A stretch of DNA of 64,000 nucleotides from a virus. The notes below the pieces were generated by a model. The model ran no database searches, was not told the DNA's origin, and worked only from the letters and a program-made list of their open reading frames with translations. Shown here in pieces: positions 5,101 through 54,954 of the stretch. The stretch is from IMG/VR virus record IMGVR_UViG_3300048839_000196, positions 9,883-73,882 of that record, one strand, 5' to 3'. Each line of letters opens with the position of its first letter. Position 1 is the first letter of the stretch. Made by a program: the position numbers and the translations under genes.

Positions 5101-8100
5101 AACTTTCTTAATGGCGCTAAGAAGTTTCCAAAGCGGAAGTCAAATGAGTAGGCGAAGTCTCGCTTGTTCTTGACTTGACTATCGCCAAGTAACTTGCCCA
5201 TGCGGCGCCAGAAGCGATTAGCTTCTTCCACTGCCCCGGCCATAGGCGACCCCGGTGCCCGGTAGCCTCGGCCAGAAACAACCTCGAATAATTCTTTGGC
5301 ATCGCTCTCAAACATTCCGAAGTTCCTCGCCGTATTGCGAACGATCTCTAGGTCAGGTATGCGGTCGTAGTTGTCATTAACGTATTTGCGAGCAGCTTTG
5401 TACTCCGGGTATGCGCGAAGAGCTGGGCTGGCTTTTTGCTGGCGGATATCTATACCACTATCGCCATCCTTTATCGCCATGGCCTGCAACTCAAATCCAA
5501 ATTCATTCTGTGCCAGCTCAAAGAAAGCATCATCCCTACTCTGTGCCGGGATCTCATTCCAGATGGCGTTAAAGATCGACTCGACGACTGGTGTCTTCTG
5601 CCCGGTGGCCTGAGCAATGATGGATGCCCGGCTAGACATAGGTGTGACCTTGTAGTCAACACCCGGCTTTGGAGTGTAGCCCGTGGCGACTTTGTGCAAC
5701 AGACTGTCTTTTGCTACACGACCAAGCCCGACCACGGCAGCAGGTATAGACCTACCTTTCGTGTCGATTTTTGGCGAAATTTTCGACACGTTATACCCTT
5801 GTGTAGATTCCGCGTACGCATCTAATGTCGAATTAATTTTTTCTACGCGATTCTCAGCGGCATTGTCGTAAAGAGAAAGGAGCTGTTTCGCCTCAGCGCT
5901 ATCCAAACCTCCGGGCGTGTTAGCAAGAAGAGATACTGCATCTTCAACTCGCACCATTTGCTGACCATCCACGGTCGAAACGAACACATCGTCTATGGCG
6001 CCAACCACTCCGAGTACATCGTACACCGGAACTGCATCTTTATCCAGCGATGCGACAAGCGCTCCGCGCATCACATCCTCCCGGCTCACCTTTCCATCTT
6101 TGACAGTAGAGATTCGCTCTGTAATCCGGGACACCATTTCATAAAGTGGCCGGGCATTGTCAGATAGGGCAGCCTCCACCTTGGCCACATTGCCAACACT
6201 CCCGCCTTTCTCAAAAGCGACGAACGTCTTTCCAACCCTCTCAAGCGAAGATAAATCGTCGGTCTGTACAGATGAAGGGTGCTTGTCAAACATCGCCTCA
6301 TAGCGCTGCTTTGACTCCTGATGGTATGTTTCAGCCCTCTTGTTTGACTTTGCGGTAAAGTCAGATAAGTCAAAGACCGGGGGTTCGGAGCGCAGCTTTT
6401 CGGTCGTGTCGATCTTTTTCTGCTGACGGATATCCACTCCTTCTCCAAAGGTCATATTCGATCCGTCAGCAAGTTTGATCTGATTAGCAAACTCGTCGAA
6501 CACATGGATATGCGCGGTCATATCCTGCATGTCCATACTTGGGAAACGTACACTAGCATTTATGATGATGCCATCGTGGCCTAAATTTCTGAAAGTCTGG
6601 GCGACAATTTGAGAAGAAACTAATCTACCTTCTTCGTCCTCCGCGTATGGCAAGTCTCTACGAATAGCTGCTTCAAGCGCGGCGGTAGATATACTATCTT
6701 CATATATCCGATCCTCAAGAATCTGATCTGCCGTGGTAGTTTCTCTAGGCGCCCACTCGTCAATCGCATCTTGCAGCGCTTGAACTACGGTTAGTTCTTC
6801 GCCGGAAAGATCGAGTGCCCTTTGACGAACATCGAACTCATAATCTTCTAGCGCCTCCTCCGGAGTGATGTCATTCTCGTCAGCCATCTCTTGAGCCGCG
6901 TCTTCCATATAGGCAGACACGTCCGGCATCATGTCGATGTATTGATCATCGGCGATGCGCACCGGATTATTCAGCTTGACAAAAAGATCGAGAACTTTGT
7001 CCTCTCCTCCGTTGTGACGATTGTACGAAATAGCAAGCGCTAAAGACTCAAGGTCATTGCGATCAAATGTTTCGAGCTGAGCGTCCGTCAGGTTGAACAT
7101 ATCAATCACCTCTTCTGGTGATAGCCCGTCCATATCAAAAGACTGCGACAGGTCATCCGCATCGCGCCTGATCTTATACTCAAGGTCTGGGCCGCCCGTG
7201 GTGTAGTTGGCCTGCGCGTCATACTGATCGGATGTGAAATAATTCACCTTTCCAAACTGGCCACCTATCTCACCTTTCTCATTCGCCTTATCAAAAGAGT
7301 AGAAGGAGTTTGTCGTTCCATGGAAGGCTTGGATAACTACCGGCTGCCCGGTCTGAATTTCTAGGACATCCTCGCCATCGACAATAGGTGCATCGCCCAC
7401 CCATTTTCTGAAGTTCTCCTGCCCTTCAGGGCCGAGCCATTCAAAGTCTTCGACGGATAGTTTTTGCTGGCGGATTTCTGGTTGCTGATTAACGGCGCTC
7501 TGGACTTCGCTCAAAAAAATAATTGACTCTGTAGCAATATCGTAAAACTCAGATATTGGCATGACTTTCCGCTCTACATCTGTCAACTTTCTTCTTTGCT
7601 GAGCAGCCCTAGATTCAACTTCGCCAGCGGTTGCACGGTAAGCTGCGAAAGAATCCAAAATGCCTTTTAGTGGCCCTGTCAATTTCGACTTCTCACCATC
7701 TAGCTTAGCTTGCTCTTCCCTTCCTTTTCGGTAGTAATCATCAGCCATGCCGCTATCCTCCCATCTCTTCCTGAAGCTAGCAAGCATATCAGGGATATAA
7801 CTATACTCAACAGTGATAGGAACGAACGTTTCTGAAAATATCCTATACTGCATTATAGTTATCTTTTTATTCGCTAAATCTGGGTCTTGATTCAGCTTGT
7901 CTTCAGCAGCCATGAGTTCTTTCTCGTACTTAATTGCATCAAAAAATGCTCTTAAGTACCTAGACTCTAGGCGCCCAACTCGTTCCAAGATACTTTGGTA
8001 GTAGTTTGAATTAGCGCCAGATTCGAAGCCCTCGATGTATTGTATCGCGTGCTGGACTTCATGCGTAAAAGTTGAGTTTAAGTCATCTATGGACTTGGCT

Positions 8101-29176: not shown

Positions 29177-30322
29177 CTATTTATTTATCTCGTCATCAAA
29201 TAATCCCTCCATACTCTCAAGAATGCGTGCATCCCGGCTGCCAGCTCTGCCAGTAACGATCTCATTGTACCCGTAAAGCGCCTTCGCCGTTTCATTGAAG
29301 GCAAAGTCCTTTACGAATGATGCGCGCTGTGTCACCGGGTCAACGTAGAACTCGCGTAAAGTTTTGATGTCATCGTGCCCGGTGTATAAGGCAGCTATAG
29401 TCTCAAGACTCATACCCATTGCTGCGTAGTAAGTTGCGCCTGACCTGCGCAGTAGGTGAGCAGCACGCGAGTATCTAGGGATGCTTATGTAAGAAGGCTC
29501 CCCCTTGAATGATACTGTCTTGATCGTTGCATCCGCACCAAAAGCAGTAGCCAGTGCTTTCCTAACGTCATGCACAAAGCGCCTTGACCTCGGATCGCCA
29601 GACACACAGGGCGTATCGAACTTCAGGAGGTACTTTGACTCCAAGTTCGGATCGCTCGGATCGTGCCCGAAGTATTTGAAGATGCGCGTCATCAGAGCGA
29701 AAGGCACAGGTGTGCTCATCCGTTTCTTTGTCTTTTCTGTAATGCGGGTGATCCAGTACGTCCTCCCATCTTTGGATAACTCTACATCGCCGACCCTCAA
29801 GCTGACAAGATCATTGACCCGCCAGCAGGTTATGAGTGCCAGCTTGGTGTTGATACTGGCTGAGCTGGTGTTTGGGAGTTGCAGGATTTTTTCTACCTGC
29901 TCTACACTCAAGGCAACCACCCGATCTTTCGGACGGATCTTTGTCTTAAAGAAATCGGGTACAGGTATCTGAAGTTTCACCCGCTTGAAGTTTCGCCAGT
30001 TCAGGAACACAACCAAGTTGGTTCTATGTTGATTGATTGTGCTGTGTTGCAGCCCCTCAATTGTATCAAGGAAATCCCGGAAGCCAAGAAAGAAATCTTC
30101 GAGCCACTGTCCCTTATCAAGGCGCTCTTGTGGTGAGCGGTTTACGGTGAAATCATAGTCGAACAGATCGAAATCTTCGATAAGTTCAGCCTGCATGTAC
30201 GCCAGCATCTTGTGGTATGTGCTTTGCCTATTGGTAGCTGTACTCGACGTGACGCGATTGCCGGTTTTTTGGTCGTCGCTCCACGCTTTCATTTGTTCAA
30301 GGAACATAAGTTTACTATTCAT
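29177..30322 (-). CDS. Tyrosine recombinase / integrase
   Basis: Catalytic set: R (TCWRVNDL), K (EKT), HxxR (HLLRRS), H (TGH), Y (EFY); N-terminal SAM-like region. Confidence 0.85.
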   Translation of the reverse strand: MNSKLMFLEQMKAWSDDQKTGNRVTSSTATNRQSTYHKMLAYMQAELIEDFDLFDYDFTVNRSPQERLDKGQWLEDFFLGFRDFLDTIEGLQHSTINQHRTNLVVFLNWRNFKRVKLQIPVPDFFKTKIRPKDRVVALSVEQVEKILQLPNTSSASINTKLALITCWRVNDLVSLRVGDVELSKDGRTYWITRITEKTKKRMSTPVPFALMTRIFKYFGHDPSDPNLESKYLLKFDTPCVSGDPRSRRFVHDVRKALATAFGADATIKTVSFKGEPSYISIPRYSRAAHLLRRSGATYYAAMGMSLETIAALYTGHDDIKTLREFYVDPVTQRASFVKDFAFNETAKALYGYNEIVTGRAGSRDARILESMEGLFDDEINK

Positions 30323-33283: not shown

Positions 33284-33529
33284 TCAAAACTTTGGCATTG
33301 GCCGGAAGGCCATGTCGATGAAAACGATCTGTATATCCCATCCAGTTTTTTGTTTCGTGTATTCCAGCATTCTTTCTGGTATCTGAATGTTTTTATTGCA
33401 TTGGGCCGTGTCATTGAAGAAAATTGCCTGCTTCTCATCTCCATCCTTACAGAGCCAGTACACTTCTCGAACTACAACCCAGCCTTGCTTGGGGTTGGTA
33501 ACGTCAATGGTATTATATCCTTTATTCAT
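33284..33529 (-). CDS. Hypothetical protein
   Basis: Early-region ORF. Confidence 0.55.
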   Translation of the reverse strand: MNKGYNTIDVTNPKQGWVVVREVYWLCKDGDEKQAIFFNDTAQCNKNIQIPERMLEYTKQKTGWDIQIVFIDMAFRPMPKF

Positions 33530-33575
33530 GGTCTATTGGATTCACGGGGCCAGCCGAAAGGCCGCCCTGATTTGG

Positions 33576-34289
33576 TTAATTCATTACTGCTGCGTAAACG
33601 CGCTGATTGACTTCCTCGTACGTCTTAGCTGAGCGCAGCCGACCTGCTGGGCGTTTCATGCCCGGAGCTTTGAACCCGCCATTGAGGATGCGCTCTTGAA
33701 GTACATTGAGCACGGTCCAGCGGTCCATGCCCTCATCTTCAGGGCGTGCCCTTTCGAGAAGGATTCGGGCCTGCTCAGGCGTGAAGGCTTTCTTCCAGCG
33801 GGCGGCGCTGGCTTTCATAGCCAGATTAATGGCCTGTTCCTCAGTGATCTCTTCGGCCTGCGCTTTCTCGATCTTTTGGCGCAGCTCTTGGATTTTCTCA
33901 ACCATTAATTTGGTGGATTCGATGGCGATTGACGCCTCATCACCTATGTGACGGACGGTGTACGCGCCAAATTCCTGATCTACGATGGTCATTCCGTTAC
34001 TGCAAACCAGCCGGAAGATACCGACCTGAACTGAGAACTTGGAGTTCCCGTTGTAAGAGTTCCGGATGACGATTTCGGGGTACAGAATTTCCCCTTTTGT
34101 GTTTGGAACGGCCTTGTCAAGGCGCATACGCACTATGTGGACGCCGCCTTTCTTACTAAGCCCCATTTGTTGCCGGAATTGCCAGCCGATAGTCGTCAAG
34201 TGCCCGACGAGGGCGTTTGTGCTTATGGTCCGGTAGAGTTTGGAGCGGCCAATTGGCCTTTCGTCGTAAGGTTGGAATTGATTTTGCAT
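33576..34289 (-). CDS. DUF932-family protein
   Basis: PEIVIRNSYNG...GIFRLVCSNG and WTVLNVLQE motifs. Confidence 0.8.
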   Translation of the reverse strand: MQNQFQPYDERPIGRSKLYRTISTNALVGHLTTIGWQFRQQMGLSKKGGVHIVRMRLDKAVPNTKGEILYPEIVIRNSYNGNSKFSVQVGIFRLVCSNGMTIVDQEFGAYTVRHIGDEASIAIESTKLMVEKIQELRQKIEKAQAEEITEEQAINLAMKASAARWKKAFTPEQARILLERARPEDEGMDRWTVLNVLQERILNGGFKAPGMKRPAGRLRSAKTYEEVNQRVYAAVMN

Positions 34290-34310
34290 GGTGGTTTGAT
34301 TTTGTTTTTA

Positions 34311-34341
34311 CAAAGGTATTAAACTTTATCTGAATTGTCAA
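34311..34341 (-). promoter_or_regulatory. Bacteroidota sigma70-type early promoter
   Basis: TTGACA...TACCTTTG with a 20-nt spacer after TTG. Confidence 0.8.
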
Positions 34342-34393
34342 GTGTTTTGTGATATTTTTTTTTGAAATTTAATTTATCTATGTTAAATTTTAG

Positions 34394-34526
34394 CCCGGCA
34401 GGTGGGATTCAAACCCACAACCCAGCCTTATTTTGCGCCGCTAAGCGCAACTTCTAGCCGGTTTTTTAGAGCAGCTTGGCCTTCGCCACTCATCATCGCG
34501 TCTGCGCAGTTTCCGCCACTGCCGGG
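34394..34526 (-). ncRNA. Expanded tRNA-like RNA (133 nt)
   Basis: Acceptor CCCGGCAG/CTGCCGGG, Leu-like D arm GCG-GAAACTGCGCAGA-CGC, T arm GTGGG-TTTGAAT-CCCAC, two long internal arms. Confidence 0.65.
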
Positions 34527-34532
34527 TATTTC

Positions 34533-34760
34533 TTACATCCAGCCCTGATCTACGATCTTAGGTTTGTTGTCTATGATTCGCCATACTTCCCGCCATTCGC
34601 CCCATTGGCCGCGGCGCTTGCGGAAAATCACCGCCTCGCTGTTTGCAGATGCGTCAATCATTCGCCGCACTGCCTTTAAAGCAGCCTTGTAATTTTTAAA
34701 GCATTCCCATACATGCGATCCTTTATCTTCGATCCAAATAGTTGGCCCGTTATGTTTCAT
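34533..34760 (-). CDS. Hypothetical protein
   Basis: Early-region ORF. Confidence 0.55.
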   Translation of the reverse strand: MKHNGPTIWIEDKGSHVWECFKNYKAALKAVRRMIDASANSEAVIFRKRRGQWGEWREVWRIIDNKPKIVDQGWM

Positions 34761-35077
34761 GGTAAGTTGTTTTTGATTTTTGTCCTGTAATTTTTGCGGT
34801 CAAACTCAGTGGCCACATAAGCAGCTATGCACTGCGTCCTGAACTCCTGATCATTTTTCTTGGCCAAGTTTTGAAGTAAATGCTTGCTCCTGATAGCCAG
34901 AAAACCACTTCCAGTTGCATTTGAGCAAAGCCTAACTAGCGCTAGGTTAATAATAAACCTCATTCGCTTAGGCAGGATGGGTACTTTTTCAAATAAGGAG
35001 CTGTAACGATCCATAGCGCAGGCGGTAGGGGTTTTTGAACGCGTTGGTGTATTACGGTCTGGTTTTTTGTTATACAT
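34757..35077 (-). CDS. Hypothetical protein
   Basis: Coupled ORF; start uncertain. Confidence 0.45.
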   Translation of the reverse strand: MYNKKPDRNTPTRSKTPTACAMDRYSSLFEKVPILPKRMRFIINLALVRLCSNATGSGFLAIRSKHLLQNLAKKNDQEFRTQCIAAYVATEFDRKNYRTKIKNNLP

Positions 35078-35089
35078 GGCAGGTTCTTT

Positions 35090-35353
35090 TTAAAGTCCAT
35101 AATAATTTAAAGCATTCTCCAGCGTTCCTTTTGTTCCGGGCTGTAATTCCGACCTTGCTGGAATGTAGTTTCTGTAGTAATCGCGTGTTGGTTTGTCTGG
35201 CAGCCAGCAAGCGCCAGACGTCAGGGCGACCATAGCTGCACGGCCCATTGATCCTTCAAATTTCCAGATTTCGCCGCTGTTAATAAGGCTTTGCATTTGG
35301 TCGTTTCCGGCTGCCTTTTGAGCCTTAATAAGCGCTTTAGTTGGGTTTTTCAT
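35090..35353 (-). CDS. Hypothetical phage protein
   Basis: QSLINSGEIWKFEGSMGRAAM, a pattern recurrent in phage early genes. Confidence 0.6.
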   Translation of the reverse strand: MKNPTKALIKAQKAAGNDQMQSLINSGEIWKFEGSMGRAAMVALTSGACWLPDKPTRDYYRNYIPARSELQPGTKGTLENALNYYGL

Positions 35354-35364
35354 GTTAGTAACCT

Positions 35365-35916
35365 TTACTTGCTGTGAATAAATATCCTGTCTAATGGATT
35401 TCTGTTTTGAACTCTTTTAATGTGTTCAAACATCCAGTCTGAAGGAGGGGCCGCGCATTCGTTCGCCACTAACAGCTTTAGCATGTCGTCGGCTGCCTTA
35501 TTAAGCGCGTAGTCTTTAAAATCCATCTCCAAATCTTTGCATACACGCGCAAACTTTCCATAAATCTTATTTATTTTTGGCCCGCAATTTTCACGGGCAA
35601 ATCTCCATTGGGATTGACTAGTCTTGCGATTATTTTTTACCCATGCTACAATATTTTCAAATTCGTTTTTTGCGTCAGGCTCATTGTCAAGCCACATAAA
35701 GAATTGATCTATAATATAGTAAGGTTGACCAGTATAGTTGAAGGCATTGCATATCCTTATTTCCCTTTCGGGGTAAAAGTACGCATTCCAACTGCCATTC
35801 TTTAGGTTTTGCTTATGAAATTCGCACAACCCTTCGCGAAGGGTTAAACAATCGCCGTAATTTCCAATAAAGATAGCCGTATTATTTGACAGCACAAAAT
35901 AAATATCTTCTTTCAT
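35365..35916 (-). CDS. Hypothetical protein
   Basis: Start moved to ATG 35916 because the track start overlaps the tRNA-like element. Confidence 0.55.
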   Translation of the reverse strand: MKEDIYFVLSNNTAIFIGNYGDCLTLREGLCEFHKQNLKNGSWNAYFYPEREIRICNAFNYTGQPYYIIDQFFMWLDNEPDAKNEFENIVAWVKNNRKTSQSQWRFARENCGPKINKIYGKFARVCKDLEMDFKDYALNKAADDMLKLLVANECAAPPSDWMFEHIKRVQNRNPLDRIFIHSK

Positions 35917-35939
35917 GGATTTTGTTTTTAATGCTTTAG

Positions 35940-36065
35940 CCCCCACCGGACGGCTCGAACGTCCTAAGTTTTTCCCGCAAGACTTACTTTATCTGATACG
36001 CTTCCAACGCTTTCCTCCGAAAGCCTCGCAGTACTCAACTATCTTGCCCTGTTGCAATGGTGGGG
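35940..36065 (-). ncRNA. Expanded tRNA-like RNA (126 nt)
   Basis: Acceptor CCCCACC/GGTGGGG, D arm TTGC-AACAGG-GCAA, T arm GGACG-TTCGAGC-CGTCC, long internal arms. Confidence 0.65.
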
Positions 36066-36077
36066 TAAGGGATGGTA

Positions 36078-36374
36078 TTATTTAACGTCTGTCAAGCTTC
36101 CATCCCACTTTTGGCCGTTCAGATACAATTTACCGCGTTTTTGCCATACCGAAACGCCGGGGATGCCATTCAGGCGGTCTCTAGTTGTTACAGTATTCCA
36201 GTATGCCGTTGTTACTGTCAGAGTCCTTTCAGGATCATTGTAACGATATGCAATTTCATTCCCATGTAACTTGAGGATTGTTACGTTTGGCAGTACTTCC
36301 ACAGAAGTATTGGAAGACCGGAATTTTTTGCCGTTCATAAAAGCGTCAATTGCTTGTCTTGTTACTTTTCTCAT
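36078..36374 (-). CDS. Hypothetical phage protein
   Basis: LHGNEIA...WNTVTTRDRLN, a recurrent phage early-protein pattern. Confidence 0.6.
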   Translation of the reverse strand: MRKVTRQAIDAFMNGKKFRSSNTSVEVLPNVTILKLHGNEIAYRYNDPERTLTVTTAYWNTVTTRDRLNGIPGVSVWQKRGKLYLNGQKWDGSLTDVK

Positions 36375-36395
36375 TTTAGTTGCTTTTTGATGGTA

Positions 36396-36426
36396 TAAAG
36401 ATACGAAAATTTATCTAACTTGTCAA
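36396..36426 (-). promoter_or_regulatory. Bacteroidota sigma70-type early promoter
   Basis: TTGACA...TATCTTTA with a 20-nt spacer after TTG. Confidence 0.7.
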
Positions 36427-36465
36427 TAGGTAGGGTGAAAAAATTTTCACCCTACCTATTTTTTT
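36425..36465. terminator. Perfect 16-bp hairpin, terminator-like
   Basis: AATAGGTAGGGTGAAA-AAAT-TTTCACCCTACCTATT with a T tract on the + strand. Confidence 0.6.
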
Positions 36466-36468
36466 GCT

Positions 36469-36750
36469 TCAAATTACAATATATTCCTTTCCGGCAAATT
36501 TCACAAATCGGATTGTATTTAAGTCTATGCGAATGAATCCGCCTTTGTTTACGTCAAAGGCTGTAAGGTAGTCAAGCGCAATTTTCCGGCGAATTTCGGC
36601 GCTTTGCACGCCTTTGACGCCTTTTTTAACGCCTTTTCGGATTGTCGCACAGCGTATTTCGCCGTCTTTTTTGGTGAAAATTACACGCGCAAACTTCCCA
36701 TTGGTTTGATTCAACAAGTTAACCGCACCTGCTTTGCTTATCGTTTTCAT
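36469..36750 (-). CDS. Small SH3/WYL-like phage protein
   Basis: GKFARVIFTKKDGEIR...FDVNKGGFIRI pattern. Confidence 0.6.
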   Translation of the reverse strand: MKTISKAGAVNLLNQTNGKFARVIFTKKDGEIRCATIRKGVKKGVKGVQSAEIRRKIALDYLTAFDVNKGGFIRIDLNTIRFVKFAGKEYIVI

Positions 36751-41312: not shown

Positions 41313-41328
41313 AAGATTTTGTTTTTTG

Positions 41329-41400
41329 ACGCGCAGCCGAGAGTCGAACTCGGGGCTGGGGATTATGAGACCCCTGTGTTACCAGCTACACCACCGCGCA
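41329..41400 (-). tRNA. tRNA with CAT anticodon (Met; Ile2 not excluded), CCA not encoded
   Basis: Cloverleaf TGCGCGG TG GTGT AGCTGGTA ACAC A GGGGT CTCATAA TCCCC AGCC CCGAG TTCGACT CTCGG CTGCGCG T. Confidence 0.85.
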
Positions 41401-41407
41401 AGTTTTG

Positions 41408-41475
41408 GCCCGCAGCCGGAATCGAACCGGACTCTGGGAGCGACCCAGCTATGCTACCATTACACCACTGCGAGC
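41408..41475 (-). tRNA. Aberrant tRNA-like gene (8-bp acceptor, 4-bp T stem, non-canonical anticodon loop)
   Basis: GCTCGCAG TG GTGT AATGGTA GCAT AG CTGGG TCGCT CCCAG AGT CCGG TTCGATT CCGG CTGCGGGC. Confidence 0.6.
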
Positions 41476-41481
41476 AAATTA

Positions 41482-41550
41482 CCCAACCGCCGCCACACGC
41501 CGCTCGTCCCCACTTACCTCAGACAAAGCCGGGCACATCACGGTTGGGAT
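41482..41550 (-). ncRNA. Candidate ~69-nt hairpin RNA heading the tRNA transcript
   Basis: Terminal stem CCCAACCG/CGGTTGGG starts at the predicted TSS. Confidence 0.4.
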
Positions 41551-41554
41551 AGGA

Positions 41555-41585
41555 CAAAGGTAAGGAATTTTTTAATACGATGCAA
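41555..41585 (-). promoter_or_regulatory. Bacteroidota promoter for the RNA cluster
   Basis: TTG-N20-TACCTTTG. Confidence 0.78.
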
Positions 41586-46867: not shown

Positions 46868-47475
46868 TGAGCAGTATATTCAAGGCATCCGATTTTCACA
46901 AGATGCGCTGGAATGCGTATAGGGCCAAGGACGAAGAGTCTCTTGGCCTTTCGCGTGATGTTCCGGCGGCTAAACGAATAATCAGTAACAAGCTCGAAGT
47001 ACAAAAGTACTTCTGCTTTATGTACGATGTGAACTCTCCCCTGAATAAGCGGATTCAGAATGTCATGGAGCGAAAAGAAATGGCAGCACAGATGGCTGGC
47101 TTTGATCGCACGCTTGTTTCGACGATCAACGCTTTGCAGCAGCTTTTTAAGCTGGCGCTACCGATTCATCAGGAGGTTCTAGCTCAGATGCTTCGCGTAC
47201 AGCACAATAGATCCTTTGATCGGATCGTTGCTGAAGAGAACCTATTCTACCAATGCGTCGAGATCATCAACACGCCCCTTGAGTTTGGTGAAGATGTCGA
47301 TCCGGAGAAAACCATTAAAGCGCTCAATGCGAAGCAGGTAACCCGTAAGATTATGGCGGAAACGGACGAGGCGTTACTCGCTCTACGGGCAAAGGTATTC
47401 TTTAATGAAGATGACCCAGCAAATGCAGTGGTCGAGAAGATGATCTCTTGGTCGCCAGAGGGAGTATCAGAGTAG
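46867..47475 (+). CDS. Hypothetical protein, candidate terminase small subunit
   Basis: Helical, immediately upstream of terL; FMYD.NSP motif. Confidence 0.45.
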   Translation: MSSIFKASDFHKMRWNAYRAKDEESLGLSRDVPAAKRIISNKLEVQKYFCFMYDVNSPLNKRIQNVMERKEMAAQMAGFDRTLVSTINALQQLFKLALPIHQEVLAQMLRVQHNRSFDRIVAEENLFYQCVEIINTPLEFGEDVDPEKTIKALNAKQVTRKIMAETDEALLALRAKVFFNEDDPANAVVEKMISWSPEGVSE

Positions 47476-54495: not shown

Positions 54496-54954
54496 ATGAA
54501 TAAGACTATTAAGTATTTTCTTGGCGCCGCTGTCCTGCTCTTTATCGGCATGATCCTTCAGAGCGCGTCTGGTGAGGCTGGCCCAACGTCAGATCAGATC
54601 GTACAGCCTGATGCTGTAACTATCAATCAGACTGACAGTGTCAAGTACATCGCCTTCAACTCGCGTGAGATCAAGGCTGACTACAAGGTTTCCTGCCATG
54701 TCGAGCTGGTTGAAAACTCCGGCACAGTAACCACTACGTTTACTCTGCAAGGAAGCAACTTCCCGCCTTCGCTTGGATTCTGGGATGACATCAGTGCAGT
54801 TACGCTCAGCGACACGGGCGACAGTACTATCACTACTGCAACAACTTCTCCTTCTTACGCTTACTACCGTTTGGCAGTAGCAAAGGCTACGAACTCCGGC
54901 AACTATTCGGTGACCGTAAATGCCTCTGCTAAGTTCAACACATTCTGGCGTTAA
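54496..54954 (+). CDS. Signal-peptide-bearing small beta-sandwich protein, putative capsid decoration
   Basis: MNKTIKYFLGAAVLLFIGMILQSA; SGT-x6-LQGS...W-x2-I...YYRL; directly after the capsid gene. Confidence 0.6.
   Translation: MNKTIKYFLGAAVLLFIGMILQSASGEAGPTSDQIVQPDAVTINQTDSVKYIAFNSREIKADYKVSCHVELVENSGTVTTTFTLQGSNFPPSLGFWDDISAVTLSDTGDSTITTATTSPSYAYYRLAVAKATNSGNYSVTVNASAKFNTFWR

Follow-up and report, generated by a model that had tools for sequence, protein, structure and literature searches.

The stretch of DNA analysed here (the window) spans 64 kb, namely bases 9883-73882 of a 73.9-kb IMG/VR virus record that is rated complete. The virus is a temperate phage of the Bacteroidota type, with an integrase gene at 29177-30322 and, on the minus strand, promoters of the Bacteroidota type (TTG .. 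TAnnTTTG) at 41562, 38575, 37844, 37542, 34318 and 28540. On the same strand, at 34394..34526, lies the feature under study, element 1, which is 133 nt long if its eighth terminal pair, C-1:G73, is counted, and 131 nt long (34395-34525) if it is read as a tRNA-like RNA with a 7-bp acceptor stem. Element 1 is the last member of an early unit of about 2 kb, which comprises a Kyano_Gp96-like ORF, a second tRNA-like element (element 2), three to four small ORFs and, finally, element 1 itself. The promoter of this unit is near 36426; at 36398-36460, a sigma-70-like promoter (TTGACA..TATCTT) is overlapped by a perfect 16-bp hairpin (36425-36460) with T-runs on both strands, which probably terminates transcription in both directions where the unit of elements 2 and 1 starts. 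Both elements begin 6-12 nt past a stop codon: in the case of element 1, the TAA stop of the 75-aa ORF upstream (34533..34760, minus strand) is located 6 nt before the element. Directly downstream come the DUF932 gene and its promoter (34290..34345, minus strand), a Bacteroidota-type promoter with the boxes TTGACA .. TACCTTTG (the -7 box is at 34318) and the A-rich leader of the gene. No intrinsic terminator was found behind element 1.

Read 5' to 3' along the minus strand, element 1 starts with a terminal (acceptor) stem, in which the 5' strand CCCGGCAG (34519..34526) and the 3' strand CUGCCGGG (34394..34401) form eight Watson-Crick pairs, 34526-34519 with 34401-34394; both strands are identified by sequence and by RNAfold, and the 5' strand also by covariation in the family described below. 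The same stem can be read as a 7-bp acceptor extended by the C-1:G73 pair, with G34394 as the discriminator; there are eight terminal pairs because C-1 pairs with G73. The dinucleotide UG leads from this stem to a Leu-type D arm (GCG-GAAACUGCGCAGA-CGC, 34498..34516), which consists of a 3-bp stem and a 13-nt loop that lacks GG, and which aligns to the family sequence GGCGGAA..UGGUAGACGC in covariance model R2 (see below). A 6-nt linker, GAUGAU, joins the D arm to hairpin 1 (GAGUGGC-GAAGGCCAA-GCUGCUC, 34469..34491), with a 7-bp stem and a 9-nt loop, in the position of the anticodon arm. After the linker UAAAAAA comes hairpin 2 (CCGGCU-AGAAG-UUGCGCU-UAGC-GGCGCAA-AAUAA-GGCUGG, 34422..34461), in the position of the variable arm, with 6 + 7 bp, a 5x5 internal loop and a UAGC loop; both hairpins are returned by RNAfold. 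The trinucleotide GUU separates hairpin 2 from the T arm (GUGGG-UUUGAAU-CCCAC, 34402..34418), which has a 5-bp stem and a 7-nt loop with U at position 56, and which abuts the 3' acceptor strand directly, without a spacer. The acceptor strand is followed by CUAAAA, so that the trailer reads G-CUA-AAA, and CCA is not encoded.

Watson-Crick pairing is perfect throughout the acceptor and T stems (13 pairs), and the 78-nt insert that replaces the anticodon and variable arms is predicted to fold into two long, almost perfect hairpins. Because of this replacement, the RNA cannot read codons. The predicted fold of element 1 has an energy of -58.2 kcal/mol (z = -2.83; none of 200 shuffled sequences was equally stable), and the plus strand of the same region folds less well than the minus strand. 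The sequence-only reading of this DNA had described an 8-bp terminal stem, a Leu-type D arm, a T arm and two hairpins, and had remarked on the lack of a 7-nt anticodon loop and of CCA; all these features are present as described, the loops of the hairpins being 9 and 4 nt long and the trailer being CUA. That reading also spoke of an intact elbow and acceptor. The acceptor stem is, indeed, perfect, and the elbow is unproven, since the D loop lacks GG, position 56 is U and there is no evident A19; for the first two of these reasons, the canonical G18-psi55 and G19-C56 contacts cannot form in the way they do in the family. The flanks are of the tRNA type: the arrangement N73-C-U/A-A-AAA is common to element 1 and to the phage's own tRNA-Met, the trailer of which is U-CAA-AAA.

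Element 2, a 125-nt tRNA-like frame at 35941..36065 on the minus strand, follows the same design with a different frame and belongs to the same unit, where it sits between two cistrons, 1.4 kb upstream of element 1. Its stem is CCCCACC/GGUGGGG, its D arm (UUGC-AACAGG-GCAA) contains GG, its T arm (GGACG-UUCGAGC-CGUCC) has a canonical T loop, the trailer is G-CUA-AAG, and the insert is 78 nt long. Element 2 matches neither Rfam at E<=5 nor the Leu-type covariance models. One more region of the minus strand with tRNA-like features, 41405-41552, is located between the promoter at 41562 and the tRNA-Met gene; it contains a 66-nt stem-loop closed by CCCAACCG/CGGUUGGG and a 70-nt tRNA-shaped element (GCUCGCA/UGCGGGC, T arm CCGG-UUCGAUU-CCGG), in which the loop of the 'anticodon' hairpin is 5 nt long and which gives a sub-threshold match to tRNA-Sec (22 bits vs 47).

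With default settings, ARAGORN makes no call on element 1, as the sequence-only reading had anticipated, and reports a single tRNA in the 64-kb window, tRNA-Met(CAT) at 41328-41400. In Rfam, no family matches element 1 either at the gathering thresholds or at E<=10, and tRNA-Met is the only match in the window at gathering. When ARAGORN was relaxed to the 80% threshold with introns allowed, it returned the same outer boundaries by forcing an unconvincing 49-nt 'intron' into element 1. A custom scanner, which looks for the T-loop consensus and for a 5-bp T stem next to a 7-bp acceptor, yields five matches in the window, against 0.235 expected from 200 Markov shuffles. Only elements 1 and 2 among these five are intergenic, and both lie on the strand that encodes the early region; the matches at 6623-6690, 47137-47233 and 54696-54817, which lie inside long ORFs and have no D arms, are attributed to chance.

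Several known kinds of RNA can be discarded for element 1. It is not a tmRNA: it contains no G3-U70 pair, no pseudoknots and no tag frame with a hydrophobic tail, it receives no Rfam call, and the tmRNA search of ARAGORN, the relaxed threshold included, gave no match. A YrlA-type Y RNA is rejected on the grounds that element 1 ends at the acceptor stem, not at an anticodon-side Ro-binding stem, and has no Rfam match; in addition, Pfam and PHROGs scans of the 30 neighbouring early ORFs revealed no Ro60-type family. The 78-nt insert compares with a core of at least 200 nt in a group I intron residing in a tRNA gene, and there is no Rfam intron match; an intron-containing tRNA, a C/D-box K-turn and a hammerhead were ruled out by ARAGORN, Rfam and inspection. 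An attP remnant was rejected as well, the integrase gene being 4 kb away and both acceptor halves being present. The 22-codon frame that runs through the insert, from an ATG at the D-arm junction to a TAA in hairpin 2, is attributed to chance and is absent from similarly built relatives such as L106.

Close relatives of element 1 were sought in several ways. BLAST searches with the element and with the 10 kb around it found no match among the INPHARED phages; the IMG/VR loci reached via the neighbouring DUF932 and 193-aa proteins held no close homologue; and exact probes, one for the T arm plus acceptor and one for the 5' part, gave only chance matches for element 1. The insert has no homologue in about 4 Mb of fetched phage DNA. 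As for antisense targets of the insert, the best match in the window is 13 nt long and on the wrong strand (about 0.2 expected), and none in the phage is above chance. Scans for DUF932 in metagenomes and genomes brought up relatives of at most 43% identity, and a protein search showed a relative with 91% identity (P0001).

Elements of the same design are, nevertheless, found at distant DUF932 loci from IMG/VR and metagenomes, always on the strand of the DUF932 gene. These relatives have in common the acceptor RGUCAGG/CCUGACY, the D arm UGGCGGAAU..AGACGC and the T arm; their middles are 40 to 130 nt long and unrelated to each other. In an alignment of element 1 with nine such relatives, 98% of the cells are paired over the 15 pairs of the frame, and 9 of the 15 pairs change on both sides, which none of 500 shuffles reaches; covariation of the frame, which the sequence-only reading had proposed to look for across phages, is thereby found. 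The Rfam tRNA model matches several of the expanded relatives only by skipping 55-59 nt at the anticodon arm. A single 15-nt probe for the 5' part led to at least 120 further IMG/VR loci; Rfam has no model for these Leu-type anticodon-less phage RNAs.

The anatomy of the family was counted on 111 complete IMG/VR elements. They measure between 60 and 270 nt, most often 100-110 nt, and ARAGORN calls only 24 of the 111, assigning haphazard anticodons at odds with a Leu frame. Outside the probe, the 3' half is nearly invariant, and the inserts show no similarity between members. With respect to the flanks, U-1 is present in 86%, A73 in 85% and C74 in 95% of the elements, and CCA is encoded in 2 of the 111; the 208 genuine tRNAs at those loci have U-1 in 69% and a similar A-rich trailer of the C-A/U-A type. 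Members with U56 all have A19 (3 of 3), and members with C56 have G19 (66), a pattern that reads as covariation of the tertiary elbow pair, G19-C56 to A19-U56. The family frame appears, by these counts, to be under strong structural selection, down to a tertiary pair. Element 1 itself, with C-1, G73, C74 and CUA, agrees with the family only at C74 and in the lack of CCA, and it has U56, yet no assignable G18 or A19 in GAAACUGCGCAGA.

The modular character of the family is seen in L292:350-3480 (minus strand), where five Leu-frame elements with identical frames and unrelated inserts of 84-115 nt are found within about 3.2 kb. A second phage (L326) carries one of the inserts of this array, with three A-to-G changes. 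In another group of elements (L101:136-310, L113:2234-2408, L152:139-312, L108:2240-2422 and L035:1380-1520), there is an extra D-loop hairpin of 25-40 nt along with an enlarged hairpin 1. L101 equals L106 plus two loop insertions, which suggests that the family grows by insertion into loops, in the manner of rRNA expansion segments. Expanded tRNA-like RNAs of non-Leu type occur in unrelated phages (L177:2578-2687; L273:853-963, minus strand; L213:74-193, minus strand; L209:515-636; L086:4143-4263); this set includes one with a Ser-type D arm, a 110-nt body and covarying acceptors, one with a canonical D arm and a 70-nt middle, and one with an insert that holds a second T-arm-like hairpin.

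The assignment of element 1 to this family relies on covariance model R2, which was built from 24 IMG/VR elements, with no sequence of the window included. In the 64-kb window, element 1 is the sole match of R2 (27.9 bits, E 3.5e-4), and the match runs over model positions 1-104, i.e. the full length. The same model finds T5 RNA1 at 36.6 bits, also over the full length, and matches T4 rnaC in part, at 21 bits. A second model, R1, which was trained on expanded elements, scores genuine phage tRNA-Leu genes at 38-48 bits. With the end-to-end match to R2 and flanks like those of tRNA-Met, the description of element 1 as a tRNA mimic, offered by the sequence-only reading, is supported. Judged by sequence and predicted fold, element 1 appears to be a real, divergent member of a very large kind of phage RNA that is typified by T5 RNA1.

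The protein neighbours of the family are diverse. When the 1771 ORFs located up to 3 kb from 135 family elements were clustered, no cluster extended to more than 8 of 120 loci; those at the top were terminase, helicase and unknowns, and, in the same clustering, no defence or anti-defence gene was consistently adjacent. The DUF932 gene is found in 9 of 120 RNA-probe loci, as compared to 0 of 117 control loci. In marine loci, DUF932 genes are located 0.4-1.5 kb upstream of tRNA arrays that start with tRNA-Leu(UAA); such loci are L013, L016, L096, L099, L103, L121-L124, L135, L144, L159-L161 and others, and 23 of 160 loci carry any tRNA call. In freshwater relatives, expanded Leu-type tRNA-like RNAs are at the position held by the tRNA arrays in marine loci. 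We treat the link to DUF932 as shared ancestry of the early-region layout rather than as a functional pair. The predicted fold of the DUF932 protein (pLDDT 79) has no Foldseek match in PDB at E<=0.001.

The public sequencing runs listed for this DNA include no RNA run; two DNA runs from lake water were compared with positions 33400-36500 of the window. The lake relatives cover the DUF932 gene, its promoter and 35112-35971, and nothing covers 34365-34543; one lake contig joins 34343 to 35112 and so bypasses element 1 and two ORFs. Since the relatives in two metagenomes are without this whole module, it appears to be accessory and dispensable. A lake contig aligns to 35346-35971, with 96% identity over the 193-aa ORF and the 3' part of element 2, and then shows 12 letters equal to the D arm of element 2 (36057-36046). 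This hints at a relative without the 74-nt insert (35972-36045), in which the D arm would run straight into the letters that precede the T arm; 12 letters of that D arm are visible.

What is observed is the structure, the frame covariation, the flanks of tRNA type, the operon position and the membership in the family; transcription, processing and stability of the RNA, along with any role in trans, are inferred. The reading that we prefer, and to which we give somewhat less than an even chance, is that element 1 encodes an RNA that does not decode and that descends from a tRNA of class II (leucine type), with the tRNA part as the handle and the insert as the payload. The upper half of the molecule, i.e. 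the acceptor stacked coaxially on the T arm, together with the Leu-type D arm, would make element 1 a substrate for the host enzymes of tRNA maturation. RNase P would cut at the 5' side, and trimming of the 3' side and completion of CCA would occur at the G-C-U-A end; excision would release a stable molecule of about 131 nt and, concomitantly, set the 3' end of the upstream mRNA. The tRNA part would then provide processing and stability, and the 78-nt insert would be a lineage-specific payload, that is, a binding site or a decoy. RNase P cleavage and 3' maturation would be the best-supported step, because the family frame has the same flanks as real tRNAs; the design as a handle plus a payload is suggested by the invariance of the frames and by inserts that are unrelated or, sometimes, absent. 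Three functions had been envisaged by the sequence-only reading. An RNase P/Z processing signal is plausible, given that element 1 closes an early unit and lies 6 nt past a stop. Element 1 is unlikely to serve as a decoy for anticodon nucleases, since it has no loop resembling that of an anticodon arm. The invariant frame and the unrelated inserts would fit best with an aptamer or guide scaffold; no target was found.

The main alternatives differ in what they make of the insert and of the conserved frame. On balance, we consider it unlikely that element 1 acts only in cis as punctuation of the early mRNA, namely as a site of RNase P and 3' processing or as protection of the 3' end, with the excised RNA having no job. 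Such a role would suit the location of both elements 6-12 nt past a stop, with element 2 between cistrons and element 1 ending a unit without a terminator, and flanks that match those of genuine tRNAs. However, the acceptor/T-arm helix and the elbow are all that RNase P requires, so that large structured inserts are left over; the near-invariant Leu-type D arm, A73 and the five-copy array with different inserts are not accounted for, and T5 RNA1 and T4 rnaC are annotated as stable RNAs. The near-invariant D arm and the 19-56 covariation of the family exceed what a mere cleavage signal needs. Conservation of exactly the acceptor end, the discriminator, the D arm and the elbow pair, in genes that are early and accessory, is what could be expected if the upper half were a decoy that titrates a host factor targeting the acceptor end or elbow of tRNAs, e.g. 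a defence toxin that cuts or modifies their 3' ends, while decoding is left undisturbed. We deem this proposition a weak contender, and rather improbable: it leaves the large, structured, copy-specific inserts without explanation, element 1 has lost A73, U-1 and GG, and there is no consistently adjacent defence or anti-defence gene.

These same losses, together with that of C56, would be natural in a decaying or neutral remnant of a former gene of the tRNA-Leu-type family that has lost its function in this phage, as would relatives without the module and an insert without a homologue in about 4 Mb of phage DNA. A remnant is, however, hard to reconcile with the perfect Watson-Crick pairing of 13 out of 13 acceptor and T pairs, with long and nearly perfect insert hairpins, with a fold 2.8 standard deviations more stable than the shuffles and with the presence, 1.4 kb upstream, of another element of this design within the unit, and we regard it, as an alternative for this copy only, as quite improbable. 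By far the least credible, in our opinion, is an aminoacylated non-decoding tRNA that is charged by LeuRS and serves either as a donor of leucine off the ribosome or as a LeuRS sponge. In E. coli tRNA-Leu, A73, the D arm and the 19-56 pair are LeuRS determinants, whereas the anticodon and variable arms are dispensable. The family, with A73 in 85% of the members, a Leu-type D arm and a kept 19-56 pair, is in line with such charging; element 1 has G73, engaged in the C-1:G73 pair, and no G18G19, so that the main determinant is missing, and no aminoacyl-transferase gene was found in the early region. Leucylation of element 1 is not predicted, because of the C-1:G73 pair, the D loop without GG and U56 without an evident A19.

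The preferred reading of a tRNA-derived handle with a payload can be carried further. The upper half of a Leu-tRNA could be a natural scaffold for cassettes, a universal handle for processing, stability and, possibly, charging, with interchangeable modules and with flanks that serve as recombination sites; the payload of element 1 would then hit a factor of the host or of its defence. We put this forward as a speculation that is more probably wrong than right by a wide measure. If it were true, phages would acquire, discard and exchange modules such as aptamers, decoys and antisense pieces.

The genome records of T4 and T5 list stable RNAs of tRNA shape that lack an anticodon, and give no function for them. 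These RNAs date from the 1970s-80s and, to our knowledge, have never been explained. Element 1 adds a divergent member from a Bacteroidota phage to a kind that is very common in uncultured phages. The value of this copy by itself is modest; if a function were found, be it that of a decoy, of a scaffolded regulator or of a charged tRNA that does not decode, it would account for a class of genes that is widespread in phages and would be a natural precedent for the engineered tRNA scaffolds that are used for expressing RNAs.

Element 1 can be set against a series of known RNAs. Like a canonical tRNA (RF00005), it has a 7-bp acceptor stacked on a 5-bp T stem and a 7-nt T loop; unlike it, element 1 lacks the 5-bp anticodon stem and the 7-nt loop with U33 and a purine at 37. 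With class II tRNA-Leu (RF00005), it shares the D arm GCG-GAA..AGA-CGC and an arm in the position of the variable arm, and differs in the 6-nt linker that replaces nucleotide 26, in G73 and in the absence of G18G19. In the tRNA-like domain of tmRNA, the acceptor and T arm are kept and the anticodon arm is swapped for other RNA, as in element 1, and processing like that of tRNA would be common to both; tmRNA is far larger. Engineered 'tRNA scaffold' RNAs and viral tRNA-linked small RNAs (the TMERs of MHV68) exploit the tRNA body for processing and nuclease resistance. The working idea is the same as the one proposed for element 1, but those are laboratory constructs or eukaryotic Pol III units; in units of the TMER type, the cargo is beside the tRNA, whereas in element 1, which belongs to a bacterial virus, it takes the place of the anticodon and variable arms.

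The phage RNAs come closer. The T4 species 1 and 2 RNAs, rnaC (139 nt) and rnaD (119 nt), are encoded at 70908-71171 of AF158101 and annotated as 'small, stable RNA', with no function; these stable RNAs of 120-140 nt end a cluster of phage tRNA genes. Like element 1, rnaC has internal hairpins and a T arm, the latter of canonical sequence (GGUUCGAAUCC), and it is closed by an acceptor-like stem, but this stem is imperfect and there is no Leu-type D arm; for rnaD, RNAfold gives no tRNA-like fold. In T5, RNA1 (AY543070, 30501-30644) and RNA2 are annotated as 'tRNA-like stable RNA with unknown functions', and the likeness of RNA2 to element 1 is looser. T5 infects E. coli, whereas the phage of element 1 has Bacteroidota-type promoters; T5 RNA1 is 'stable' according to its GenBank annotation, whereas for element 1 a stable RNA is predicted from the DNA sequence; and T5 RNA1 keeps the GG of the D loop that element 1 lacks. 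The likeness of the two is, for all that, extensive: T5 RNA1, 144 nt long as compared to 131 nt for element 1, has the Leu-type D arm (CCGGAAUUGGUAGACGG), the acceptor and the T arm, it sits, as does element 1, among small early ORFs and phage tRNA genes, and its middle is replaced, as in element 1, by an unrelated structured RNA, the sequences of the two inserts being dissimilar.
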